Of a DNA stretch of 64,000 bases, positions 5,494 through 54,874 are shown piece after piece. This DNA is from Candidatus Eiseniibacteriota bacterium (GTDB taxonomy: Bacteria; Eisenbacteria; RBG-16-71-46). How positions within the stretch are numbered: position 1 is the first letter of the stretch; every line of letters starts with the position of its first letter. The position numbers and the translations under genes are program-made. The notes beneath the pieces were generated by a model that saw only the letters and a list, made by a program, of their open reading frames with translations, was not told where the DNA came from and made no database searches. The stretch is taken from assembly GCA_038231135.1 (NCBI GenBank), contig JBBRLX010000006.1, positions 20,161 through 84,160 of the forward strand, given 5' to 3'.

Positions 5494-6440
<947 letters not shown>

Positions 6441-6444
<4 letters not shown>

Positions 6445-7697
6445 CCCACACGACGCTGCAGGGCGCTCTCGAAGCGCTCTATGGACTCGAACGACGCCAG
6501 GGGAAGCTGGGCCTCGACGGCACGCGCAAGCTGCTGGCGGCGCTCGGCAGCCCCGAACGGACATTTCGCGCCGTGCACGTGGCCGGCACGAACGGCAAGG
6601 GCTCGACCTGCGCCCGCATCGAGCGGGCGCTGCGGCTGTCGGGCGTGCGCACCGGCCTGTTCACCTCGCCGCACCTGGTGGAGTTTCGCGAGCGCATCCG
6701 CGTGAACGGCCGCTGGGCCGACTCCGCCGGGCTGCATGCGATGCTCGAGCGCATCGCCGTGCTGCCGGAGGCCGCGGACCGCACGTTCTTCGAAGTGGCG
6801 ACCGCGCTCGGGTTCGGCTGGTTCGCCGAGCAGCACGTGGAGTGGGCGGTCGTCGAGGTCGGGCTCGGCGGCCGGCTCGACACCACGAACGTGCTCGAGC
6901 CCGCCGTGTGCGCGATCACCCGCATCGGCCTCGATCACACGGAGCTCCTGGGCGACACGCTCGAGGCGATCGCCGCCGAGAAGGCCGGGATCGTGAAACC
7001 GGGCGTGCCGGTCGTCGTCGCGCCCGACGTGGACGCGCGGTCCCGCGCCGTGATCGTGGCGATCGCGGCGGAGCGCGGCGCCCCGGTGATCGAGCCCGAG
7101 GCCCTCGGGACTGCCGCCGCGGGGGACGGCGGCCACTCCGGTGCCGTGGGTGCCGCCTACCAGGACGCCAACGCCGCGACGGCGCGCGCGGTGCTGCACG
7201 TGCTGTCCGGGCTCGGCGTGAACGTGACGCCGCGCGCGTTGTGCGAGGGGCTCTCGCACACCCGCTGGCCGGGACGCTTCGAGCAGGCGCCCGGCGAGCC
7301 GCGCCTGTGGTGGGACGGCGCCCACAACGCCGACGGCATGGGGGCGCTCGAGCAGTCGTGGCGCGCGGCGTCGCTGCCGGAGCCGGCCGCCCTGGTGCTG
7401 GCGCTGTCGCGGGACAAGGATCTCGACGCCGTGATCGCCGTGCTGAGCCGGTTCGCCGGGAGCGCGGAGGTGGTTGCCACGCGATCCCACAGCGAGCGGG
7501 CGCTCGACCCGGAACGGATCGCGACCGCGGCCCGGGCGGCCGGCATGCGCGCGCGCGTGGCGGACGATGTGGCGGCCGCCTGCCGCGCCGCGGTCGCGGC
7601 CACCGCGCCCGGCGGCCTGGTATTGCTCACCGGCTCGCTGTTCGCCGTGGGCGAGGCGATGCAGGCGTTCGGTGGCGCGCCGGGAGAACTGCTGTGA
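6441..7697 (+). CDS. folC: Bifunctional folylpolyglutamate synthase / dihydrofolate synthase
   Basis: Mur-ligase-type P-loop VAGTNGKGST. It overlaps the accD stop, and accD-folC is a conserved pair. Confidence 0.85.
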
Positions 7698-10600
7698 GGC
7701 GCGTGTGGCTGGCGCTGGCGATCGCGATCGCCAGCGCGGCGGGCGCCGCGGGCGCGGCGCCGGCCGTTCCAGCGGCGCCGACGCCCTGGCCGATCGAGGT
7801 CACGCCGATCGTGCCGTCGAGGGTCACGCAGCCCTCGGATACGGCCGGAGCGGCGGCGCGGCACCAGGCGGCGGCCACGAGCCGCGCGTCCGACGCCGGC
7901 AGGTCCATCGCACCCACTGCGGGCGCCGGCGCGCACGATGGCGCCGAACCTGCCAACCGCACACCCGCGCCGCCGGGGTTCGGCGCCGCGTTCGACAGCA
8001 CCCGCGGCTCCCACCCGGGGACGCCGGGCACCGCGATCGTCGTGGCACGCGACTCCGGAGCGGTGGTGCCCCCGGCCGCGGCGGGCATCGGCACGCCGCC
8101 GCGCGCCGTGCGGCCGCCGGCGTCGGCACCGGCGCGGCCGGCCGGACCCACGCCGCCGCTCAACATCGCCGCCGACAACGTCACCGGCAGCCACGGGCCC
8201 GAAGGCGACGTGATTCTGCTCAACGGCAACGTGCGGATCACCCGCATGCGGAGCGTGATCACCTCCGACCACGGCCGCTACCTGCGCAGCGAGGGCATGC
8301 TGTACCTGGAACAGAACGTGAAGCTGGTCGACAGCACCACCACGATGACGTGCAACCAGGCCTCCTACTCCGAGAACGACGACATGCTCCGCCTGCAGGG
8401 CAACGTCGTGGTCACCGACCACGACGCCACGCTGCGGGCGCCGTGGGCCACCTACGATCGCCGCATCGGGCGGGCCGAGCTGTTCGGCGGCGTCGACGCG
8501 CACGACAAGCACGAGACGATGCGCGCCGACAGCGCGCTCTACCTGCGGGACTCGTTGCTGCTCAAGGCCCGCGGCCACGTGCGCGGCATCGACAAGGACA
8601 ACAAGCTGGAACTCACCGCCCGCGCCGTCGACTGGGATCGCGACGCCCGGGACGCGATCGCGTGGGGCGATCCCCAGCTCGTGTCGCACGAGGACCAGGG
8701 CCACGACACCGTGATCCGCGCGCGCACGCTGCGCGTGAACACCGACACGCGCGTGGCCGAGGCGGTGGACTCGGTCACGATCGTGCGCGACACGCTGCAG
8801 GCCCGCGCCGACTACGGGCAGTTCGACGATCTCGCGAACTACGCGATCCTCACCGGCCACCCGCGCGCCTGGGACCAGGAGACGGTGGTGACGGGCGACA
8901 CGCTCGAGATGTGGACGGACGGCCATCACCTGCAGCGCGTGGTCGTGGAGCGCAACGCGGTGATGGACTACGCCGGCCGGGAGCCGCTGACACTGGGCGA
9001 GAAGAGCCGGCTCAGCGGCGACCAGGTGACCGTGTACTTCACCGACGACGACATCGACAGCCTGGTGTCGGTCGGCAAGGCGCACAACGACTACACGGCC
9101 GTGCCGCGGCCCGGGAAGGCGTCCGAGACGAATCTCGCCCAGGGCGACACGATCACCGTGTTCTTCCTCAAGCGGAAGATCGATCGCGCCCGGGTGGAGG
9201 GCAAGGCGTCGGGCGAGTACCAGTTCGCCGTCGCGAAGGGGGACACCGCCGCCGCGGCCGACGAGCGCGTGCGCTACGACGCCCGCACCATCGAGTACCA
9301 GGTGTCGCGCAACCGCATCGTGCTCGACCCCGGGGCCCATCTCACGTATCGCGATCTGGAGCTGACCGCGCGCCGCGTGGAGTTCGACCTCAACCGCCAG
9401 ACGCTGGTCGCGGAGGGCAAGCCGGAACTGGTCGAGCACGGCGACAAGGTGACCGGCAACCTGATGACGTACGACCTCGAATCGCGCGTCGGCAACATCT
9501 ACAAGGCCGAGACCGAATACGAGGCGGGGCTGTATCACGGCGAGCGGATCCGGAAGGTGAGCGACAAGGAACTGGACGTGATGAACGGCTCCTACAGCAC
9601 CTGCAATCTGCCGGAGCCGCACTATCACTTCGCGTCGCGCTGGATGAAGATCTATCTCAAGGACAAGCTGGTCGCGAAGCCGGTGGTGTTCTACGTCAAG
9701 CACGTGCCGCTGCTGGCGCTGCCGTTCTGGGTGTTCCCGCTCAAGCCCGGCCGGCACTCCGGATTCATGCTGCCGACGTTCCAGCTCGGCTTCAGCAATC
9801 GCGCCGGCCAGTTCTTCCGGAACGCCGGCTACTACTGGGCGCCGAACGACTACATGGATCTGACGGTGGACGGCGACTACTACGCGGCCGAGCCGTCCTG
9901 GGTGGTCCGCACCGAGGGCAATTACAAGCTGATGTACGTGCTCGACGGCACGTTCAACGGCAGCTTCGCGCGTGACGAGGGCATCAAGACCGAGAACTGG
10001 GACTTCGACGCCGACCACACCCAGGAGCTGACCCCGCGCTCCCGGCTCGTGGCGCGGGCGTCGTTCGTGTCGAGCCGCGACTACAACTCGAGCAACCTGT
10101 TCGGGCGCTCGCTGTCGCAGCGCCTCAACCGGTTCCTCACGTCGAGCGTCGCGATCAGCCACAACGCGGACTGGGCGAGCTTCAACAACTTCGTCGAGCG
10201 GCGCCAGGATCTCGACGCCGATCTCGAGCTCGACGATCCCGACGGCGCGGGGCCGGGCCGGTCGAAGCCGGTGGGCACCCGCGCGTCGCAGTTCAATCTC
10301 ACCGAGAGCCTGCCGAGCCTCGACATGTCGTTCCCGACGCGCACCGCGGGCTCGCTCGGGTTCCTGCGCGGCACCCCGTTCGAGAAGGCGCTCAGCACGA
10401 TGTATCTCAGCATGTCGGCGCGGTTCCTGTCGCTGCACACCCAGCGCGCGTTCGTCGAGGCCCGGCTGCCCACCGCCGCCGACACCACTCAGGATTCGCT
10501 GCTGGTGCTCGGCCAGGAGCAGAACACGCGGCGCGGGTTCCAGACCGACGCGTCGGTGTCCGACGCGCGGCGCGCGTTCGGCTGGCTGAATCTGCGGCCG

Positions 10601-11584
10601 TCGCTGAACACGTCGGTGGCGGTGTTCGACCACGACCGGCTGGGGAACAAGCTGGTGCCGACGGGGGTGTGGTCGGCGGGCATGAACGCGAGCGCGTCGT
10701 TCTACGGCACGTTCACGCCGCACCTGGGTGCGCTCGACGCGTTCCGTCACGTGGTGTTCCCCAGCGTGACGCTGCAGTACAGCCCGGATTTCAAGAACCT
10801 GCTGATCGCGGGCCCGAACGGCACCGAGCAGGAGCGGTTCGAGAGCTTCGGCGGCATCGGCGTGTCGGGCGCCAAGCAGTTCCAGCTCGCGCTCGGACTC
10901 GACCAGCGGCTGCAGGTGAAGCTCCGCCACAAGGACCAGATCACGCGCATCGACAACCTGCTGGCGTGGAGCATGTCGAGCAACTACGACTTCCTGTGGG
11001 CGGAGCACGGGGCCAGGCACCCGCTGACTCCGATCGGCTCGGCGGTCACGTTCCAGCCGCCCAAGTACTTCAACGCTTCGATGAACTTCACCACCGACCC
11101 CTACAACGGCCGCCCGCTGCGGTCGCTCACGTACTACCTGGGCCTCAATCTGTCGAGCAGTGGCGCGCGGCGCGACGATGCGCCCGGCCTCGCGGTCGAG
11201 CGCAGCTCGAACGAGGTCGAGGCGTTCCACGACAACTGGAACGTGGGGCTCACGTATTCCTATTCCGGCGGCTACCCCGGCGACCTGCCCGGCAAGGCGA
11301 GCCCGTTGTGGACGACGACGCGCAACGCGAACGCCGTGACGAGCTATCAGTTCAGTCCGGCGTGGGGCGTCGAGTATTCGGCGTCGTTCGACCTCACCCT
11401 GCGGCAGATCGGCACGCAGCGGTTCTCGCTCACCCGCGATCTGCATTGCTGGGAGGCGACGTTCTCGCGCACGTTCACAGCGGGCGGCGAGGCCGAGTAC
11501 TACTTCCGGCTCGGCGTGAAGGAGCAGAAGGAGATCTACATCGAGCGCGGCACGCGCTCGGGCAGCCTGGGCGGGATCCAGTGA
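7694..11584 (+). CDS. lptD: LPS-assembly outer-membrane protein LptD (OstA) with long Pro/Ala-rich N-terminal extension
   Basis: GTG at 7694 overlaps the folC stop. There is a signal peptide and an approx. 170-aa low-complexity segment. OstA-like N-terminal domains follow (GDVILLNGNVRI..., LRLQGNVVVTD), then a C-terminal LptD beta-barrel region (FASRWMKIYLKDKLVAKPVVFYVKHVPLLALPFWVFP). The track ORF 6386..11584 is rejected upstream of 7694 because it overlaps folC out of frame. Confidence 0.8.
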   Translation: MRRVWLALAIAIASAAGAAGAAPAVPAAPTPWPIEVTPIVPSRVTQPSDTAGAAARHQAAATSRASDAGRSIAPTAGAGAHDGAEPANRTPAPPGFGAAFDSTRGSHPGTPGTAIVVARDSGAVVPPAAAGIGTPPRAVRPPASAPARPAGPTPPLNIAADNVTGSHGPEGDVILLNGNVRITRMRSVITSDHGRYLRSEGMLYLEQNVKLVDSTTTMTCNQASYSENDDMLRLQGNVVVTDHDATLRAPWATYDRRIGRAELFGGVDAHDKHETMRADSALYLRDSLLLKARGHVRGIDKDNKLELTARAVDWDRDARDAIAWGDPQLVSHEDQGHDTVIRARTLRVNTDTRVAEAVDSVTIVRDTLQARADYGQFDDLANYAILTGHPRAWDQETVVTGDTLEMWTDGHHLQRVVVERNAVMDYAGREPLTLGEKSRLSGDQVTVYFTDDDIDSLVSVGKAHNDYTAVPRPGKASETNLAQGDTITVFFLKRKIDRARVEGKASGEYQFAVAKGDTAAAADERVRYDARTIEYQVSRNRIVLDPGAHLTYRDLELTARRVEFDLNRQTLVAEGKPELVEHGDKVTGNLMTYDLESRVGNIYKAETEYEAGLYHGERIRKVSDKELDVMNGSYSTCNLPEPHYHFASRWMKIYLKDKLVAKPVVFYVKHVPLLALPFWVFPLKPGRHSGFMLPTFQLGFSNRAGQFFRNAGYYWAPNDYMDLTVDGDYYAAEPSWVVRTEGNYKLMYVLDGTFNGSFARDEGIKTENWDFDADHTQELTPRSRLVARASFVSSRDYNSSNLFGRSLSQRLNRFLTSSVAISHNADWASFNNFVERRQDLDADLELDDPDGAGPGRSKPVGTRASQFNLTESLPSLDMSFPTRTAGSLGFLRGTPFEKALSTMYLSMSARFLSLHTQRAFVEARLPTAADTTQDSLLVLGQEQNTRRGFQTDASVSDARRAFGWLNLRPSLNTSVAVFDHDRLGNKLVPTGVWSAGMNASASFYGTFTPHLGALDAFRHVVFPSVTLQYSPDFKNLLIAGPNGTEQERFESFGGIGVSGAKQFQLALGLDQRLQVKLRHKDQITRIDNLLAWSMSSNYDFLWAEHGARHPLTPIGSAVTFQPPKYFNASMNFTTDPYNGRPLRSLTYYLGLNLSSSGARRDDAPGLAVERSSNEVEAFHDNWNVGLTYSYSGGYPGDLPGKASPLWTTTRNANAVTSYQFSPAWGVEYSASFDLTLRQIGTQRFSLTRDLHCWEATFSRTFTAGGEAEYYFRLGVKEQKEIYIERGTRSGSLGGIQ

Positions 11585-13037: not shown

Positions 13038-13354
13038 GCGCGCTCCCGAATTCCGTTTCGCGGCCGACCTGTGGCGCCTGGCAACCGCGCCGGACCACTG
13101 GTCGCGAGACTACGCTCGGGGGTTGGGCGGCGGCAATCGCGGGCCCGGACGGCGCCCGGCGCGCCGACGCCGCGCGTGGGCGCCCGATCCGAAACTACCG
13201 GGTCGAAGCTGCCGACGGTCCGGGTGGCTGTCAGCGATTCCGCAACTTGCGCAGCGCCCCAACCCGGGCCGGGGACGGCTCTTGCGCTTCGATCGGCGTC
13301 CCCGTAGACTCCCCGCAGGCTGGTCTGCAGAGTCCCAACGTCACCGGAGATTCC

Positions 13355-14779
13355 ATGAAGTCTCTTACCACCCGAATTCTTGCTGCTGCCGTGGTCGCCG
13401 TCGTGAGCTGGCTCGTGCTCGCCTCCGCCGCCGCGCCCCACTCGCTACAGCCGAACAAACTGGTCATCCTCTCGACAACGGACGTCAAGGGCAAGACCAG
13501 CCCCTGTGGCTGACACACGCCCAAGGGGGGTCTGGCCCGGCGGGCCAGTTTCGCAGACAGCGTAAAGCTCCAGTACAGCAACGTGCTGCTGGTCGATGCC
13601 GGAGGGTTCTTCCCCGAAGGCGCCACCGAGTACGACGTGGCGTGGTTCATGATGGACGCCATGAAGCTGCTCGGCACCGACGGCGTCGGCGTGGGTGAGC
13701 GCGACCTCAAGTACGGGCTCGCGTGGCTCAAGGGGCAGCAGAAGCGCACCGGACTCCCGATCGTGTCGGCGAACCTGCTCGACAAGAAGACCGGCAGGCC
13801 GGTGTTCGCGCCGTTCGTGATCAAGCGGGTCGGCACCGCGAAGGTGGGCATCTTCGGGCTGATCAGTGACAAGGTCGACCTCGGGCCGGCGCGGGATTCG
13901 CTCACCGCCCAGGACCCGATGGTGGCGGCGAAGAAGGCGATCGCCGACATGCACAAGGCCGGGGCGACGGTGATCGTGCTGCTGTCCCAGCTGGGCAAGG
14001 TCGAGAGCGAGGACCTCGTCACTGCGGTGGACGGCGTCGACGTTGTGATCGCGGGCCGCAACGTGCCGCTGATCCAGAAGGGCCGGCTGATCAAGAACAC
14101 GGTCGTGGCGTACGGCGGCGAGCAGGGCCAGTACGTCGGCCGCACGATCATCACGCTCGGGCCCGGCGGCAAGGCGACGGCCGGGGACGACGACATGTTC
14201 ATCCTGAGCCCCGAAGTCGGCGAGAAGCCCGAAGTGCTCGCGCTGGTCAAGAGCTTCGAGGACGCCTACAACGAGAAGCTGCGCAAGGGCCAGATGGATT
14301 CCGAGGCGTCGAAGGCGGTGGCGCAGGAGAACAATCCCGACCGCTACCTCGGAGCCGAGTTGTGCACGCGCTGCCATTCGTCCGAAGGTGAACAGTGGAA
14401 GACCACCGCGCATTCGCTGGCGTGGCAGACGCTGGTGAACGTGAAGAAGGACGCGACGCCCGAGTGCATCGGCTGCCATTCGGTCGGCTTCAACAAGTCG
14501 GGCGGCTTCACGAGCGCGACGGCGACGCCGCACCTCGAGAACGTGCAGTGCGAGAACTGCCACGGCATCGGCACCCAGCACGACTCGTTCGCGGCCACGC
14601 CGCACCCGGTGACGGCCGAGGTGTGCCAGACCTGCCACCATGGCGATAACGATCCCGACTTCAACTTTGCGAAGTACCTGCCGAAGATCGCGCACAGCAA
14701 CCTGTCCGGCGAGACGATCAAGAACATGAAGAACAAGATGTCGCCGGGAATGATGAAGGGGAGCGGCGGCACGAACTGA
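13355..14779 (+). CDS. Secreted degenerate 5'-nucleotidase/metallophosphatase-like domain fused to tetrahaem cytochrome c; contains one in-frame TGA (13511-13513), candidate selenocysteine or pseudogene
   Basis: ATG at 13355 with a signal peptide (MKSLTTRILAAAVVAVVSWLVLASAAAP), then LVILSTTDVKGKTSPCG-[TGA]-HTPKGGLARR...NVLLVDAGGFF. This resembles the start of the 5'-nucleotidase N-domain with metal ligands substituted. The C-terminus has four CxxCH motifs (CTRCH, CIGCH, CENCH, CQTCH). The segments 13355-13510 and 13514-14779 share a frame and are separated by a single TGA. Confidence 0.5.
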
Positions 14780-14838: not shown

Positions 14839-16230
14839 TTGACGAACGTGCTCGAGGGTGTTCGGTACTTCGAGAACATCCTGCAGACCGTCGGCAACAC
14901 GCCGCTCGTCCGCCTGCGCAACGTGGCGCGGGACTGCCCATGCCCGGTGCTCGCCAAGCTCGAATACTTCAATCCCGGCGGCAGCGTGAAGGACCGGATC
15001 GGGCTCGCGATGGTCGAGGCCGCGGAGCGCGACGGCAATCTCAAGCCCGGCGGGACGATCGTCGAGTGCACGTCGGGCAACACCGGCCTCGGGCTCGCGA
15101 TGGTGGCGTCGGTGCGGGGCTACCACGCGGTGTTCTGCATGCCGGACAAGGTGTCGAGCGAGAAGGTGAACCTGCTCAAGGCGTTCGGCGCCGAGGTGCT
15201 GCTGAGTCCCACCGCCGTCGAGCCCGACTCGCCCGAATCCTACTATTCGGTCGCGCGCCGCATCGCCGCCGAGCGGCCGGGCGCCTACCTCACGAACCAG
15301 TACCACAACCCGGCGAACCCGCTGGCGCACTACCTCACCACGGGACCCGAGTTGTGGCAGCAGACCGCGGGGCACATCACGCACTTCGTCGCCGGCATGG
15401 GCACGGGCGGCACGATCAGCGGCACCAGCCGCTATCTCAAGGAGCAGAATCCGCAGGTCCAGACCATCGGCGCCGATCCCGTCGGCTCGATCCTCAAGCA
15501 CTACCACGAGACGAAACAGCTCAGCGAAGCGCACACCTACAAGATCGAAGGCGTGGGCGAGGACTTCATCCCGAGCGCGACCGATTTCTCGGTGGTGGAC
15601 CGCGTGGTGGCGTGCAACGACCGCAACGGGCTCAACATGGCGCGCACGCTGGCGCGCGAGGAGGCGATCTTCGTCGGCGGCTCGGGCGGCATGGCCACGT
15701 GGGTCGCGATCGAGGTGGCGAAGGCGCTGCCGGCCGACAGCCTGGTCGTGGTGCTGCTGCCCGACACCGGCGAGCGCTACCTGAGCAAGGTGCACAACGA
15801 CGAGTGGATGCGCGACAACCATCTGCTCGACCCGACCGCCGCTTCGGCGGGGCAGATCGTCGACACCAAGAAGCGCAAGATCCCGAATCTTCTGTCGGTG
15901 CCGTCCGGCGCGTCGCTCAAGCAGGCGCTGGCGCTGGTCGAACAGCACGAGATCAGCCAGATCCCGGTCGTCGACGGCGACACGGTGATCGGCACGCTCG
16001 AGGAGAGCGACATCCTCAAGCTGGCGATGTCCGATCGCGCCGCGCTCGATCGTCCGGTGAACGCGTGGATGAAGCCGCCGCTGCCGATGGTGAACGCGGA
16101 CGAGCACGTCGACCAGGTCACGCGGCTGCTGGTGCGGGAGCCGGCGGTGCTCGTGAAACGCGAAGGCCGTGTGGTCGGCATCCTGACGCGCTACGACATG
16201 CTGCAGTTCATCGCCGGAGGCGAGGGATGA
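14839..16230 (+). CDS. Cystathionine beta-synthase (PLP-dependent, with C-terminal CBS-domain pair)
   Basis: The PLP lysine region (GGSVKDRIG), CTSGNTGLGLAM, and a C-terminal CBS pair. Confidence 0.85.
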   Translation: MTNVLEGVRYFENILQTVGNTPLVRLRNVARDCPCPVLAKLEYFNPGGSVKDRIGLAMVEAAERDGNLKPGGTIVECTSGNTGLGLAMVASVRGYHAVFCMPDKVSSEKVNLLKAFGAEVLLSPTAVEPDSPESYYSVARRIAAERPGAYLTNQYHNPANPLAHYLTTGPELWQQTAGHITHFVAGMGTGGTISGTSRYLKEQNPQVQTIGADPVGSILKHYHETKQLSEAHTYKIEGVGEDFIPSATDFSVVDRVVACNDRNGLNMARTLAREEAIFVGGSGGMATWVAIEVAKALPADSLVVVLLPDTGERYLSKVHNDEWMRDNHLLDPTAASAGQIVDTKKRKIPNLLSVPSGASLKQALALVEQHEISQIPVVDGDTVIGTLEESDILKLAMSDRAALDRPVNAWMKPPLPMVNADEHVDQVTRLLVREPAVLVKREGRVVGILTRYDMLQFIAGGEG

Positions 16231-17399
16231 CCGACGACGCGCTCACCCCCACGTCGGGCTTTTCCACGCGCGCCGTGCACGCGGGGCAGATGCCCGATCC
16301 CACCACGGGCGCCGTGGTGGTGCCGATCTACCAGACGTCAACGTATGCCCAGGAGGCGCTGGGCAAGAACACGGGCTTCGAGTACGCGCGCACCCACAAC
16401 GCGACCCGGTCCGCGCTCGAGGGCAACCTGGCGTCGCTCGAAGGCGGCCGCCACGGGCTGTGCTTCGCGTCGGGACTCGCCGCCACCACCACCCTGATGC
16501 ACACGCTGTCGGCGGGCGACCACGTGATCGCCGGCGACAATCTCTACGGCGGCACCTACCGGCTGTTCGAGCGCGTGTTCCGCAGGTTCGGCCTCACGTT
16601 TACGTACGTGAGCGGCACCGACAGCGCCGAGATCGAGCGCGCGTTCACGCCCGAGACGAAGCTGGTGTTCGTCGAGACGCCGACGAACCCGATGATGCGG
16701 CTCGTCGATCTGGCCGCGGTGAGCGAGGCCGCGCACCGGCGCCAGGCGCTGGTGGCCGTCGACAACACGTTCATGACCCCGTATTTCCAGCGTCCGCTCG
16801 AATTCGGCGCGGACGTGGTGCTGCACTCGGTCACCAAGTACCTCAATGGCCACAGCGACATGGTGGGGGGGGCTCTGGTGACGAGCCACGAGGAGCTGGC
16901 GACGCAGCTGCGGTTCCTCCAGAACGCGGCGGGGTCGGTGCCGGGGCCCATGGACTGCTGGCTGGCGCTGCGCGGCACGAAGACGCTGGCGCTCCGCATG
17001 GAGCGGCACAACTCGAACGCCATCGCGCTGGCACGCTCGCTGGCCGCGCACCCGGGCGTCCAGCGCGTGTTCTATCCGGGGCTCGACAGTCACCCCCAGC
17101 ACGAGCTGGCGAAGCGGCAAGCCAGCGGATTCGGCGGCATGATCTCGTTCGTCCCGGGGGACGGATCCCTCGAGACCGGCCGCCGGGTGTTCGACCGGTT
17201 CCGGCTGTTCACCCGCGCCGAGAGCCTGGGCGGTGTCGAGAGCCTGGTGTGCCACCCGGCGTCGATGACGCACGCCTCCGTGCCCCGCGACCACCGGCTC
17301 GCCATGGGATTCGCCGACGGGCTGCTGCGGCTGTCCGTGGGGATCGAGGACCTCGATGATCTGCGCGCGGACCTCGCGCAGGCGCTCCAGGAAGGATAA
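16227..17399 (+). CDS. Cystathionine gamma-lyase / gamma-synthase family PLP enzyme (Cys/Met metabolism)
   Basis: Overlaps the CBS stop by ATGA. Shows AVHAGQ...TSTY, the PLP-lysine region SVTKYLNGHSDMVGG, and VGIEDLDDLRADL at the C-terminus. Confidence 0.85.
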   Translation: MTDDALTPTSGFSTRAVHAGQMPDPTTGAVVVPIYQTSTYAQEALGKNTGFEYARTHNATRSALEGNLASLEGGRHGLCFASGLAATTTLMHTLSAGDHVIAGDNLYGGTYRLFERVFRRFGLTFTYVSGTDSAEIERAFTPETKLVFVETPTNPMMRLVDLAAVSEAAHRRQALVAVDNTFMTPYFQRPLEFGADVVLHSVTKYLNGHSDMVGGALVTSHEELATQLRFLQNAAGSVPGPMDCWLALRGTKTLALRMERHNSNAIALARSLAAHPGVQRVFYPGLDSHPQHELAKRQASGFGGMISFVPGDGSLETGRRVFDRFRLFTRAESLGGVESLVCHPASMTHASVPRDHRLAMGFADGLLRLSVGIEDLDDLRADLAQALQEG

Positions 17400-33477: not shown

Positions 33478-34597
33478 TTACCAGGGAACCGGACGGGCCC
33501 TGCCGGGCGCCGCCGAGCATCTCCCGCAGCAACTCCCACGCCCCGTCCACGGTCAGCCGCGTCAGGCAGCGCAGGTCCTCGCACTCGTCGCGGTTGCACG
33601 GGCTGCACTCGACGCGCGCGTAGTGCGCGCGATGGCCGGCGGCTTCGGAGTACGGGAAGAACATCGCCGGGCGGTTGCGCGACATGAGGCCCAGCGTCGG
33701 CGTTCCCGAGGCGACCGCGGTGTGCAGCGGACCGGTGTCGCCCGACACGAACGCCGCGCACAGCGATTGCAACGCGACGAATCGCGCGATCGGCCAGCCG
33801 ACGATCGCCCGCGCCCGACCCGCCGGCAGCCGGGCCACGATCGCGGCGGCGAGCTCGCGCTCGTTCAGCGCACCCGTCACCAGCGCGATCGCGGCAGGAT
33901 CGGATGCCAGCAGCCGGTTCGCCAGCTCGGCGAACCGCTCGGGCGCCCAGCGGCGCGTGGGCCAGCGGGCGCCGGGATGGAATCCCACGAGCGTGGCCCC
34001 GGTGCCGATGCCGAGCGCGGCCAGCGCGTCCCGCGCCTCGCCGCGGCGCTCGAGGCCGATGTGGAGCGCGGGCACCCGGTCGGGCGCGGGCCAGCCGAGT
34101 GCCGCGACCGAAGCGAGGTGGAACCGCACCGCCGACAGCGTGCGCGGCCGCGCGTGATGGGTGTAGAGCGCCGAGCGCCAGCCCTTGTTGGGATAGCCCA
34201 CGCGCACGCGCGCACCCGACGCGAACGTCCACACCGCGGTGCGCGGGTTGCAGAAGAAATCGATCGCGAGGTCGGGAGCGAACCGGCGCAGGCGCGCGAG
34301 CAGCTCCAGCGTCTCGCGCGGGCCCGGGCTCCGCGGCACGACGAAGCGCTCGTGTATGCGCGGATCGCCCTCGAGCAGCGGCGCGCTGTCGCGTTCGACG
34401 ACATAACCGATGCGCGCGCGCGGGCACGCGGCGCGGATCGCCTCGAGCGCCGGCAGCGTCAGGCAGATATCGCCGAGGAAGCGCGGCCGCACGAGCAGCA
34501 CGCGGCTCACGCCCGCGGGATCCACGGCGGCGGTCGCCGCGGCCGCCGCGGAGGCGAACCCGGCCGCACCCCCGGGGGCGGAATCGGAGGCCCGCAT
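33440..34597 (-). CDS. Glycosyltransferase family 9 (ADP-heptose:LPS heptosyltransferase-like)
   Basis: VLLVRPRFLGDICLTLPAL... and the GT9 C-terminal half (GDTGPLHTAVASGTPTLGL). Start chosen at the ATG at 34597. Confidence 0.7.
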   Translation of the reverse strand: MRASDSAPGGAAGFASAAAAATAAVDPAGVSRVLLVRPRFLGDICLTLPALEAIRAACPRARIGYVVERDSAPLLEGDPRIHERFVVPRSPGPRETLELLARLRRFAPDLAIDFFCNPRTAVWTFASGARVRVGYPNKGWRSALYTHHARPRTLSAVRFHLASVAALGWPAPDRVPALHIGLERRGEARDALAALGIGTGATLVGFHPGARWPTRRWAPERFAELANRLLASDPAAIALVTGALNERELAAAIVARLPAGRARAIVGWPIARFVALQSLCAAFVSGDTGPLHTAVASGTPTLGLMSRNRPAMFFPYSEAAGHRAHYARVECSPCNRDECEDLRCLTRLTVDGAWELLREMLGGARQGPSGSLVIISSGATAEPGP

Positions 34598-34706
34598 GCC
34601 TCCGGCGGGCCCGGGGAGGATCACATTCGCGGAAGCTGCGTTCGGCATGCGCTGGAGTATGATCGGGGTCCGCCTTCGTTCCAACCGCCCTCGAAAGGAC
34701 AGCAGC

Positions 34707-35915
34707 ATGGCCCGCGATTCCGATTCCCCGCGGCCGCGCGGTCTGCGGACCCGCGCCGTTCACGGCACCACGCACCTCCCGCCGGGAGCCGTGAGCACGC
34801 CGATCGTGCACTCGTCGACGTTCACGTCCGCGAGCATCGACGACATGATGCACCAGCAGGAACTCGGGGCCGACGGCAGCTTCTACCAGCGCAGCGGGCA
34901 CCCCACGCTGAAGGCCGTGGAGGCCCGGCTGGCCGATCTCGACGGCGCCGAGCGGGCGCTGCTGTTCGCGTCCGGCATGGCCGCGATCGCCGCGGCGTTC
35001 CTCGCGCATCTCGAGCCCGGCGACCACATCGTCGCGCTGCAGCAGAGCTACGGCGGCACGACCGAGCTGCTGCATTGGGGCGCGAAGCGCTTCGGCTGGG
35101 AGGTCGCGTTCGCCGACGCGCGCGAGCCCGACGCGATCGAGCGCGCACTCAAGCCCAACACCCGCATCGTGCACGTGGAATCGCCGACGAATCCCACGCT
35201 GTGCATCGTCGACCTGGCGCGCACCGCCGAGCGCACGCACCGCCACGGTGCGCTGTTCTTCGTCGACAACACGTTCGCGTCGCCCGCCGGCCAGCGCGCG
35301 ATCGAGCTGGGCGCCGACCTCGTGATGTACAGCGCCACCAAGTCCATCGGTGGCCACAGCGATCTGCTGGCCGGCGTCGTCGTGGGGCCCGCGAAGGTCG
35401 TGAAACCGGTGTGGAAGGCGCGCGTGGTGTTCGGCGGCATCGCCGATCCCACGACGGCGTGGCTGATCGAGCGCAGCCTCAACACGCTGCCGCTGCGGGT
35501 CGCCGCGGCGAACGCGAACGCGCTGACGATCGCCACCCGGCTCGCGGCCAATCCCGAGGTGGTGCGCGTGTTCTACCCCGGGCTCGCCGGCCATGCGAAC
35601 CACGAGGTGGCGGCACGGCAGATGGCGCTCGGGTTCGGCCCCGTGGTGTCGTTCGAGCTGCGCGACGCGGCGCAGGCCCAGGCGGTGGTGGACGGGCTCG
35701 GGCTGATCTCGGTGGGACCGAGCCTCGGCGGGGTCGAGTCGCTCGTGACGCTGCCGACGCTGACGTCGCACCGCATGCTGTCGCCGTCCGAGCGCCGGGA
35801 GTCCGGCGTCGCGGACGGCCTCGTGCGACTCGCTCTGGGTATCGAGGACGCCGACGATCTGTGGGCCGATCTGGAGTCGGCGCTGGCCCGCAGCCGGGTG
35901 CCCGCGGCGCGCTGA
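34707..35915 (+). CDS. Cys/Met-metabolism PLP-dependent enzyme (cystathionine gamma-synthase / beta-lyase / O-acylhomoserine sulfhydrylase family)
   Basis: RBS aaaggacag. TRAVHG..., the PLP lysine SATKSIGGHSDLLAGV, and GIEDADDLWADL. This is the second member of this family in the window. Confidence 0.85.
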   Translation: MARDSDSPRPRGLRTRAVHGTTHLPPGAVSTPIVHSSTFTSASIDDMMHQQELGADGSFYQRSGHPTLKAVEARLADLDGAERALLFASGMAAIAAAFLAHLEPGDHIVALQQSYGGTTELLHWGAKRFGWEVAFADAREPDAIERALKPNTRIVHVESPTNPTLCIVDLARTAERTHRHGALFFVDNTFASPAGQRAIELGADLVMYSATKSIGGHSDLLAGVVVGPAKVVKPVWKARVVFGGIADPTTAWLIERSLNTLPLRVAAANANALTIATRLAANPEVVRVFYPGLAGHANHEVAARQMALGFGPVVSFELRDAAQAQAVVDGLGLISVGPSLGGVESLVTLPTLTSHRMLSPSERRESGVADGLVRLALGIEDADDLWADLESALARSRVPAAR

Positions 35916-36050
35916 GGGACGATCCCGCATCCGGTTTCGGGCCCGAACCCGCGGCTTCCGCGGGTTGCGTGCCCTGTGGCCGGAAACCGCCGCCCCATGC
36001 TACGCTGGTGCCGCTCTGACCCCCCGTACACCCCCTGTGGAGGATTGCCC

Positions 36051-36857
36051 GTGAAGCGCTCGATCCTGGCGCTCGTTCCGCTTGCCCTCGCCGCGTGTCT
36101 CGCGGCGGGACCGTCGGCTGCCCAGACCGGCTCCACGCTCGCGGCTCCGAAGAAGCCCGCGTCCGCCACCAAGACTAAGGCGGCGCCCGCACCCGCGGTG
36201 ACGGCCCCCGCGGCGACGACCCCGGGAACCGAATCCGCCACGCCCGGTGCGACATCGAGTCCGGTGGGAACGACCAGCACTCCGGCTCCCGGCATGCCGA
36301 CCTCGACAGAGCCGGCGAAGCCGGCGGGCGTCGACAGTCTCGGCCTGCTCGAGCGCGCCGTGAAACGGGACTCCACCAAGTTCGACAACCTGTACCGGCT
36401 CGGCGTCATGTACCTCGATCGCGATCGCGTGACCGAGGCGATGACCGTGCTGCTCAAGGCCCACCGGCTCAGGCCCAAGAACCACCGGGTGCTCGTGAAC
36501 CTCGGCGCCGCGTTCGACGCCGCCGGCCAGCCGGCGACCGCCCAGACCTACTACAAGGAAGCCCTGGCCGCGGCTCCCGGTGACTCGGTCGCCACCTGCC
36601 GGCTCGCGAGTTCGCTGTACGCGCAGGCGAACTACAAGGACGCGATGAAGCTGCTGCGCTCGATGATCGGCGACCCGAAGAAGAACACCGGCGCCTATTG
36701 CGCGTACTTCACGCTGGGCGTGGCGTTCGCGGATGCCGGCATCTATCGCGACGCGATCCGGATGTGGAAGAAGGTCATCGAGATCGCTCCCAACTCCGCC
36801 GAGGCGAACAGCGCCAAGGAAAGCATCGACGTCCTGGAAAAATTCGTGAAGCAGTAG
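36051..36857 (+). CDS. TPR-repeat lipoprotein
   Basis: RBS ggagga precedes the GTG. Lipobox LAAC. A Thr/Pro/Ala-rich linker followed by TPR-like repeats. Confidence 0.65.
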   Translation: MKRSILALVPLALAACLAAGPSAAQTGSTLAAPKKPASATKTKAAPAPAVTAPAATTPGTESATPGATSSPVGTTSTPAPGMPTSTEPAKPAGVDSLGLLERAVKRDSTKFDNLYRLGVMYLDRDRVTEAMTVLLKAHRLRPKNHRVLVNLGAAFDAAGQPATAQTYYKEALAAAPGDSVATCRLASSLYAQANYKDAMKLLRSMIGDPKKNTGAYCAYFTLGVAFADAGIYRDAIRMWKKVIEIAPNSAEANSAKESIDVLEKFVKQ

Positions 36858-54116: not shown

Positions 54117-54202
54117 CGGAGGGATGGCCGAGTGGTTTAAGGCGCCGGTCTTGAAAACCGGAGGACGAAAGTCCCGTGGGTTCGAATCCTACTCCCTCCG
54201 CC
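54117..54202 (+). tRNA. tRNA-Ser (anticodon UGA), type II with long variable arm
   Basis: Acceptor GGAGGGA/TCCCTCC. D-loop GCCGAGTGGTTtAAGGC. Anticodon loop CT-TGA-AA. T-loop GGTTCGAATCC. G discriminator plus an encoded CCA. Confidence 0.85.
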
Positions 54203-54596
54203 ACTCTCTCTCGGCGATTCGTGGGGCGCCCCAGGACCAAAGGCGAAGCCTGATCCCTCAACCCCTCGAGGAACCAGGCTCGCCTCCCCACCGTGGATCC
54301 GTGTCGCCTCCAACGAGCGGCTCTAAGTGGCGAGCGTCCTGAAGGGCGATCACAAGATCGGCAGGATATCTGTTGCTCTGGCTGGTGATGTCGTTTGCCC
54401 GATCACCGGCGAGCACAGTTAGATGCACGCGTGGGCAGTCGATTCATGGATTTCTTCGGGTCCTTCCGGCTTGGATCGGCGCGCGCAGCGTTCCTGGGTG
54501 ACGCGGGTTCGGACGCGCGGAAATGCCCGTTTGGACGCGCGCGGCCGATCGGCTAAAGTGCTCCGTCGCAAGGCAGATGAGACTGCGGTTCGGTGC

Positions 54597-54641
54597 CCGC
54601 TCCAAGGTCCGTTTCACCGGGTTCGAATCCACTCCCTCCGC
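54597..54641 (+). other. Degenerate direct repeat of the 3' approx. 45 nt of tRNA-Ser(UGA) (tRNA fragment / putative att-site remnant)
   Basis: ...caccgggttcgaatccactccctccgcc against the 3' end of the tRNA, ...cccgtgggttcgaatcctactccctccgcca. There is no 5' half, D-arm or anticodon arm, so it is not a functional tRNA. Confidence 0.5.
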
Positions 54642-54653
54642 CGCACAGATTTT

Positions 54654-54745
54654 GGAGAGGTGGCCGAGTGGCTGAAGGCATCCGCCTGCTAAGCGGTTGA
54701 TCGGGTAAAACTGATCCGGAGGTTCGAATCCTCTCCTCTCCGCCA
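54654..54745 (+). tRNA. tRNA-Ser (anticodon GCU), type II
   Basis: Acceptor GGAGAGG/CCTCTCC. Anticodon stem CCGCC. Loop CT-GCT-AA. Long variable arm. T-loop GGTTCGAATCC. GCCA end. Confidence 0.85.
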
Positions 54746-54797
54746 GACCCGTCGAACCTGCTCGGCCGCCCCCAGGCCCGCAGCCCCGTTTCAAGGC

Positions 54798-54874
54798 GCG
54801 CCCTTAGCTCAATTGGATAGAGCATCTGACTACGGATCAGAAGGTTGGGGGTTCAAATCCTCCAGGGCGCACCA
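54798..54874 (+). tRNA. tRNA-Arg (anticodon ACG)
   Basis: GCGCCCTTAGCTCAATTGGATAGAGCATCTGACTACGGATCAGAAGGTtGGGGGTTCAAATCCTCCAGGGCGCACCA. A 7-bp acceptor. Anticodon loop CT-ACG-GA. Confidence 0.85.

Follow-up and report, generated by a model that had tools for sequence, protein, structure and literature searches.

An in-frame TGA, very probably decoded as selenocysteine, in a UshA-like tetrahaem cytochrome gene of an Eisenbacteria-like bacterium

The subject of this analysis is a gene on the + strand of a 64,000-nucleotide stretch of contig JBBRLX010000006.1 (this whole stretch is called the window below), in which an in-frame TGA separates a short N-terminal segment from the body of a predicted exported tetrahaem cytochrome. 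Read directly from the sequence, one continuous frame leads from an ATG at 13355-13357 through a TGA at 13511-13513 to a stop, also TGA, at 14777-14779. The frame begins MKSLTTRILAAAVVAVVSWLVLASAAAPHS...KTSPCG and resumes beyond the first TGA as HTPKGGLARRASF..., giving the local reading TSPCG-(TGA)-HTPKGG, with TGT-GGC-TGA at 13505-13513. The data presented here make us confident that the locus is a genuine member of the UshA-like (PCGU) family in which this TGA is decoded as selenocysteine (Sec). The features on which the argument draws are the following.

13346-13349, + strand: Shine-Dalgarno-like GGAG, 5 nt before the ATG, read from the sequence and putative in function.
13355-14779, + strand: complete coding sequence of the UshA-like (seleno)protein, 474 codons, with Sec as codon 53 and its own TGA stop at 14777-14779.
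13355-13429, + strand: predicted Sec-type signal peptide, residues 1-25, with an A-S-A cleavage motif, read by eye; homologues are alike.
13457-14224, + strand: degenerate calcineurin-like / 5'-nucleotidase N-terminal domain, about residues 35-290, from profile searches against the Protein Data Bank (PDB) and from Foldseek.
13505-13513, + strand: Cys51-Gly52-Sec53 (TGT GGC TGA), the family-invariant C-G-U/C motif, from an alignment of 72 full-length members.
13532-13548, + strand: selenocysteine insertion sequence (SECIS) hairpin, as judged by comparative pairing, with a 7-bp stem (CUGGCCC/GGGCCAG) and the loop GGC at 13539-13541, overlapping the L-A-R-R-A-S codons.
14342-14704, + strand: cytochrome c554-like tetrahaem domain, from PF13435, PDB entry 1bvb and the NF041198 profile.

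An initial annotation, made from the sequence alone, had described a single frame split by a TGA and followed by the hairpin CTGGCCC-GGC-GGGCCAG at 13532-13548, and the sequence is exactly so. It had also placed the only signal peptide upstream of the TGA. Reading the N-terminus by eye bears this out: the sole signal-peptide-like N-terminus (MKSLTTRILAAAVVAVVSWLVLASA/A), comprising a positively charged n-region, a 16-residue hydrophobic core and the A-S-A motif, lies 5' of the TGA, and the N-termini of full-length Cys homologues are comparably hydrophobic. The four CxxCH motifs (14363-14377, 14465-14479, 14549-14563 and 14624-14638) lie 3' of it. Apart from the TGA the locus contains no further disruption. 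The initial annotation wished to see an error excluded; a local assembly error is unlikely, because the identical TGA is present in two independent public assemblies of the same organism (Logan SRR19962015 and SRR19962014).

Related loci were collected by scanning one genome per species, and 80 species-representative loci were kept and their sites registered codon by codon. Most come from Candidatus Eisenbacteria metagenome-assembled genomes (MAGs), and the remainder carry the labels Acidobacteriota, Thermodesulfobacteriota or Deltaproteobacteria, Nitrospinae, Gammaproteobacteria, Verrucomicrobiota and Armatimonadota. One TGA-type copy, in locus L024, lies on a closed Eisenbacteria chromosome (OY969801.1). 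At the aligned codon, 54 of the 80 loci have TGA and the other 26 have TGC or TGT, such that orthologues carry both of the states, Cys and TGA, between which the initial annotation had asked the comparison to discriminate. Full-length homologues, of about 470-480 amino acids, read TSPCG-C-[HS]xPKGG, with Cys exactly at the position of the TGA, and tblastn alignments span the TGA unbroken in dozens of species. Differences from clade relatives in the 20 codons 5' of the TGA are mostly synonymous (10 synonymous and 1 non-synonymous relative to locus L004), indicating that the segment upstream of the TGA is translated in this frame. The proposal that the TGA encodes Sec, made initially from this one sequence, is thus upheld by the alternation of TGA and Cys codons at the same site.

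The hairpin downstream of the TGA is placed as a bacterial SECIS (bSECIS) would be. Its stem begins 18 nt and its loop 25 nt from the TGA, its calculated minimum free energy (MFE) is -12.1 kcal/mol, and its loop is GGC on a 7-bp stem. In the published bSECIS model (PMC13188914), the loop has 3-9 nt with a G in its first two positions, the stem has 4-16 bp, the UGA-to-loop spacing is 16-37 nt and the MFE is <= -7.5 kcal/mol; the window hairpin lies inside all of these limits.

Several results weigh against Sec decoding, or against the view of the protein that we build on it. The folding energy of the hairpin is ordinary relative to shuffles of this GC-rich sequence (z = -0.75 over 50 nt and +0.06 over 71 nt), and an Rfam search around the site, with E up to 10, returned two chance-level matches and no matching model. 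When the 64-kb window and 82 loci were searched by tblastn with E. coli SelA, SelB and SelD, no match was obtained, and ARAGORN detected no tRNA-Sec in the window or in loci L001-L060. These two negatives say little about the decoding machinery, the presence of which in this genome we assume, because the search covers only 64 kb of it. Clustering of open reading frames (ORFs) across the 80 loci revealed only within-phylum synteny and no partner gene conserved across phyla. Finally, in an AlphaFold2 (AF2) model made for P0008, a Cys homologue 63% identical to the window protein, the predicted local distance difference test (pLDDT) score is below 50 in the C-G-C loop and in the haem domain.

Since the stability of the hairpin could not be used as evidence, TGA members and Cys members of the family were compared for pairing at the hairpin columns. 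Among 36 TGA members with a GG[LFV]ARR-type downstream peptide, registered by codon, 91.4% of cells are paired, a value reached by 0 of 500 shuffles, and controls in which one arm was slid by 1-3 nt give 20-53%. In the same columns of 22 Cys members, only 49% of cells are paired, no better than in shuffled or slid controls. The TGA set contains 26 cells in which both sides of the helix have changed. At pair 15-27, CG occurs 18 times, GC 14 times and UA 2 times, in columns that are the synonymous third positions of a Leu and an Ala codon (CTG/GCC, CTC/GCG and CTT/GCA). Cys members may encode the same or a very similar peptide (GGFARRASF in L011, GGLARVAS in L018) and do so with codons (CGC CGC, GCG) that break the helix. 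Because Cys members often encode the same peptide without forming the helix, the hairpin is not a side effect of the peptide. In clades with other downstream peptides (LGGLYKK, RGGLAKRAT), a hairpin whose loop is rich in G is still seen about as far from the TGA. One such candidate, found in the HKNPRGGLAKRAT clade, has an interrupted stem and a GGUCUG loop (candidates in L040, L044, L045, L054, L068 and L071); a second, found in the xxTGxxLGGLYKK clade, is CAGCUC-GGC-GGGCUG, with a 6-bp stem lying over Q-L-G-G-L codons (candidates in L048, L050-L053, L055, L061, L066, L076 and L079). Identification of the hairpin as a bacterial SECIS, as initially suggested, is therefore consistent both with the published model and with the conservation of the helix, through compensatory changes, in TGA members only.

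With Cys substituted at the TGA, the protein scores 285.3 bits (curated cut-off 275) against NCBIfam NF041198, an equivalog model called UshA_like_PCGU and described as 'UshA-like (seleno)protein'. Pro-Cys-Gly-Sec, for which the letters PCGU in the model name stand, occurs in the window protein as part of S-P-C-G-U at residues 49-53. Residues 300-474 on their own match model positions 365-519 with 118.8 bits; because these C-terminal 175 residues are matched by the profile, the curated family already includes the tetrahaem domain. Score, PCGU motif, haem domain and predicted export signal, which are all of the membership criteria for NF041198 that we checked, are present in this gene. The Global Ocean Sampling analysis of 2008 (PMC2398784) listed the family as previously characterized ('COG0737, UshA-like', motif CxU) and gave 76 Sec sequences and 92 Cys homologues for it; review tables of 2022 (PMC9312934) and 2026 (PMC13188914) include it too, again as an UshA-like CxU family. 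The gene is an additional member of an already known and curated family, here from an Eisenbacteria-like bacterium, and the existence of that family is not news. The initial annotation had regarded a selenium site in such a fusion as unusual, a view that has to be given up for a family catalogued from 2008 on. In the literature collection that was searched, no paper mentions both Eisenbacteria and selenocysteine, and the Eisenbacteria lineage may represent a modest addition to the known range of the family.

The annotation also described the protein as a degenerate phosphatase domain fused to a tetrahaem cytochrome, and both halves of that description stand, the N-terminal domain matching 5'-nucleotidases and CpdB and the C-terminal domain matching cytochrome c554. 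In searches of the PDB with the family profile, the N-terminal domain matched 3jyf (8.7e-22), 2z1a (1.7e-21), 1ush (1.9e-13) and SoxB (7e-07). The AF2 model of P0008 has pLDDT > 90 over most of this domain, and Foldseek with that model returned the 5'-nucleotidase 2z1a as the best solved structure (2.3e-20), with 2z1a, CD73 and 1ush at 1e-18 to 1e-20. Pfam searches of the window protein gave neither PF02872 (5_nucleotid_C) nor PF00149 (Metallophos) at E <= 0.01, the sole match above threshold being PF13435 (Cytochrome_C554), with 60 bits against a cut-off of 20.8.

To describe the metal site, the reference residues of UshA (metal ligands D41, H43, D84, N116, H217, H252 and Q254, and the catalytic pair H117/D120) were mapped onto 77 members. 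At the seven ligand positions the window protein has D, K, G, E, Q, R and V, and at the catalytic pair R and K; in the alignment to the hidden Markov model (HMM), GNHEF is replaced by GERDL. One of the seven metal ligands is retained in the window clade, the first Asp (D43 in STTDVKG). The initial statement that the canonical ligands of the HTNDxHG-type motif are substituted is thus correct for the His and the other ligands and incorrect for the first Asp, which is kept. Because ligands and the C-terminal domain of 5'-nucleotidases are missing, the protein fails as an active 5'-nucleotidase. The ligand pattern varies by clade: about 35 of the 77 members retain D84, H217 and H252 (x-D-H-H), others differ further, and the window clade has G, Q and R at these three positions. 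Judging from the retained residues, part of the family may still bind metal beside the Cys-x-Sec loop.

The haem domain matched cytochrome c554 (PDB 1bvb) at 9.3e-16 in the profile search. Across the 72 full-length members, the invariant residues of the C-terminal domain are the four CxxCH motifs, H353 and H409, plus V397, E400 and G404; H447 is invariant among closer relatives only. In the N-terminal domain they are C51, G52, U/C53, G58, G83 and N140, with G59 at 99%. Three loci contain a second, tandem paralogue that has no CxxCH motif (L018 4784, Cys, 337 amino acids; L037 5579, Sec, 321 amino acids; L041 2831, Cys, 327 amino acids). These haem-less paralogues have a signal peptide and PCG-U/C, and each adjoins a full tetrahaem Sec form.

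We propose the following mechanism. The UGA at 13511-13513 would be read as Sec, with the hairpin at 13532-13548 acting as the SECIS and presumably recruiting SelB and Sec-tRNA(Sec) to the ribosome; the same triplet at 14777 has no hairpin of this kind after it and terminates the gene. The signal peptide would take the unfolded chain through the Sec translocon, and the four c-type haems would be attached at the CxxCH motifs in the periplasm. Export by the Sec pathway and periplasmic haem attachment are established c-type cytochrome biology. The 5'-nucleotidase-type domain, in which six of seven ligands and the catalytic His-Asp pair are replaced in this clade, would no longer be a dimetal phosphatase, and the reactive centre would instead lie in the invariant Cys51-Gly52-Sec53 loop, an insertion that separates the old motif I from the GGxxRR helix. 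From the conservation pattern we infer that the old dimetal site is dispensable and that the functional core consists of the C-G-U/C loop and the haem chain. The loop would most plausibly cycle between selenol/thiol and selenenylsulfide, or form a covalent Se-substrate adduct, and two electrons would move singly, in either direction, between it and the c554-like haem chain and, beyond the haems, periplasmic redox partners. We give this selenenylsulfide-to-haem chemistry an even chance of being correct; the broader assignment of the protein as a periplasmic, haem-linked selenol/thiol redox enzyme is the most likely one. Given that the parent fold is one that binds tetrahedral oxyanions, and that thiosulfonate is handled by its relative SoxB, a small sulfur, selenium or oxyanion compound is a plausible substrate.

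The strongest competitor to this mechanism accepts Sec at position 53 and assigns it a different role. Instead of forming a free redox pair, Sec53 and Cys51 could be ligands, either of a metal in a remodelled dimetal pocket or of the one haem without a conserved distal His. In formate dehydrogenases and [NiFeSe] hydrogenases Sec coordinates a metal, and haem 2 of cytochrome c554 is five-coordinate, an analogy for the haem-ligand version. The roughly 35 of 77 members that retain x-D-H-H (UshA numbering D84, H217, H252) have it beside C-G-U/C, and for its four haems the family has only two invariant distal His residues (H353 and H409). However, no metal pocket is conserved together with the C-G-U motif, because the window clade has G, Q and R at D84, H217 and H252; moreover, CxU and CxC are typically redox-active pairs, and this family is listed under the CxU redox motif. 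We consider a ligand role unlikely, although it is by some distance the best supported of the alternatives. Still less probable, in our judgement, is an extended version in which Cys-Gly-Sec forms part of a new catalytic centre, its selenium bound either to the one haem without a conserved distal His or to a metal in what is left of the dimetal pocket. This abundant Eisenbacteria protein, and the UshA-like family with it, would then be an undescribed type of periplasmic selenium-haem enzyme whose substrate is a sulfur, selenium or other oxyanion compound, perhaps with a link to the downstream cystathionine genes described below.

The remaining alternatives dispute Sec decoding itself. A reassigned code or a suppressor tRNA could insert Cys, Trp or Gly at the UGA. 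Near-cognate reading of UGA is known from bacteria, and the Sec machinery of this genome is an assumption on our part. A code in which TGA is a sense codon was rejected because TGA is also the main stop codon of the window, where it terminates 15 of 25 confident ORFs in addition to this gene. No suppressor tRNA was found in the 64-kb window, the SECIS-type hairpin is conserved at the right spacing only with TGA, and the site is Cys in homologues of a family already catalogued as a selenoprotein. Insertion of an amino acid other than Sec is, on these grounds, very unlikely.

Slightly less credible again is the possibility that translation stops at the TGA and that the body is made separately from an internal GTG at 13583, yielding two products with no read-through. 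This possibility matches the existing database model: automatic gene calls divide the locus into a 52-amino-acid ORF and a 398-amino-acid ORF, and P0001, the NCBI and Logan protein for this locus (398 amino acids), begins at GTG 13583 and has no N-terminus. Most of the best protein-database matches (88 of 120) are similarly short, at 373-418 amino acids, and start past the Sec codon; they are labelled 'multiheme c-type cytochrome' or 'hypothetical protein'. However, the 398-amino-acid form lacks the signal peptide, although its four CxxCH motifs require periplasmic haem attachment, and it lacks the invariant C-G-U/C motif and part of the fold. The Cys homologues are single polypeptides of about 470-480 amino acids with a signal peptide, and short entries of this kind are the usual output of gene callers at a Sec codon. 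The family thus appears to be systematically mis-annotated as N-terminally truncated.

We assign a comparably small probability to the idea that the hairpin has no decoding role and is a by-product of the codons for the conserved G-L-A-R-R-A-S in a GC-rich genome. The stem does lie wholly inside conserved codons, and its folding energy is no better than that of shuffled sequence. Against this, the codons of Cys members break the helix over the same or a similar peptide (49% versus 91% paired), the Leu and Ala third positions of TGA members change together, and in the clades with LGGLYKK or RGGLAKRAT a G-rich-loop hairpin is still found about as far downstream. Least credible of all is a decaying pseudogene whose TGA arose by nonsense mutation or through faulty sequencing or assembly. 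This reading would account for the divided gene calls and for the lack of Sec machinery in the 64-kb window, yet it is effectively refuted by the comparative data, namely the occurrence of the same TGA codon in other species (54 sites) and in both independent assemblies of this organism, the absence of other disruptions, purifying selection on both sides of the TGA, and a co-varying hairpin that goes with TGA only.

Downstream of the selenoprotein gene, at 14839-17399 (+), lie a cystathionine beta-synthase gene (TIGR01137, 529.8 bits against a cut-off of 510) and then a gene for a cystathionine gamma-lyase/synthase-type pyridoxal phosphate (PLP) enzyme. No terminator-like site was seen on the + strand between the selenoprotein gene and the cystathionine genes, and the same gene order is repeated in many Eisenbacteria loci (L001-L010, L015 and L017-L023). 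Because of this recurrence the three genes may form an operon; a functional tie of the neighbourhood to sulfur or selenium amino-acid metabolism is speculative. Upstream, at 6386-11584 (+), is a very large gene for an LptD/OstA-like outer-membrane protein (1296 amino acids in Logan contigs), which is found upstream in 16 loci of several Eisenbacteria clades (listed as L019, L020, L024-L035, L037, L041 and L069). The order of LptD/OstA-like gene and selenoprotein gene looks like conserved synteny within Eisenbacteria.

Other neighbours, such as a NapC/NirT-type multihaem cytochrome and DUF2062, are lineage-specific and occur in few loci. The membrane-anchored NapC/NirT-type cytochrome adjoins the gene in two Desulfobacterota-type loci (L044, 6158-8371 (-), 738 amino acids; L068, 1424-3862 (-)); it would fit a periplasmic electron-transfer chain and is not conserved in other lineages. 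Some MAG labels look at odds with gene content, namely those of L045 (QMSR01000145.1, Thermoplasmata archaeon), L005 (Saccharimonadaceae), L027 (Limnocylindrales), L028 (Hyphomicrobiales) and L031 (Binatia). The last four group tightly with Eisenbacteria clades, and the 'archaeal' protein of L045 is 87% identical to that of L044, a Thermodesulfobacteriota MAG, and has a bacterial-type in-frame SECIS. Binning contamination is the likely cause of these labels.

The tRNA genes of the window are a cluster of three at 54118-54874 (+), Ser(tga), Ser(gct) and Arg(acg), none of which is tRNA-Sec. The window was also screened for other selenoprotein genes by looking for pairs of ORFs of coding-like composition joined by a TGA. 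A second candidate of this kind (34407 / 35913 / 36857) was rejected, being simply two neighbouring genes that share a frame: another Cys/Met-metabolism PLP enzyme gene at 34410-35915 (+), which has a TGA stop, and a tetratricopeptide repeat (TPR) lipoprotein-like ORF at 35976-36857 (+).

As modelled in public databases, this gene and most of its relatives are missing the signal peptide and the sole family-invariant motif that looks catalytic. Treating these genes as selenoproteins corrects the truncated models, and the practical value of the result lies in this widespread N-terminal correction. The result also implies that Eisenbacteria, an uncultured phylum of soil and groundwater, use Sec, and shows that they carry a large and diversified set of UshA-like (PCGU) genes. 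If our proposal is right, a phosphatase fold has been rebuilt in this family around a selenium site wired to haems, and the family is a reasonable choice for biochemical work.

The features of the locus can be compared with several known systems. Like the SECIS of E. coli fdhF and the bSECIS consensus, the window hairpin is a stem-loop within the coding sequence, directly 3' of the UGA, and it shares with the consensus a small apical loop starting with GG, a 25-nt spacing and an MFE below -7.5 kcal/mol. It differs from the fdhF-type element in its 3-nt GGC loop, in its perfect, GC-rich 7-bp stem without a bulged U, and in having no primary-sequence resemblance to it.

The dimetal calcineurin-like phosphoesterases UshA, CpdB and SoxB share with the window protein the fold of the N-terminal domain, an alpha/beta sandwich, clear sequence homology and a periplasmic location. 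Unlike them, the window protein carries an additional loop with Cys-Gly-Sec and has a tetrahaem cytochrome in place of the 5_nucleotid_C domain. That cytochrome resembles cytochrome c554 of Nitrosomonas europaea (1bvb; PF13435) in its four CxxCH motifs and their similar spacing, but it forms the C-terminal part of a protein that also has an enzyme-like module, whereas cytochrome c554 is a free-standing electron carrier.

Among selenoprotein families, NF049981 ('UshA-like (seleno)protein family 2') shows weak similarity over residues 36-129 (E = 4.4e-05). The window protein scores 23 bits against it, far under the cut-off of 140, and NF049981 has a CxxU motif, not CxU, and a profile of 262 positions. 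The closest system is NF041198, the COG0737 UshA-like CxU family of Zhang and Gladyshev, from which the window protein differs in nothing essential. It exceeds the cut-off by only about 10 bits, and fewer of the old metal ligands survive in its clade (D-G-Q-R) than in many other members (x-D-H-H); in common with the family, it has the P-C-G-U motif, a signal peptide, a degenerate 5'-nucleotidase N-terminal domain, a tetrahaem C-terminal domain and the alternation of Sec and Cys.

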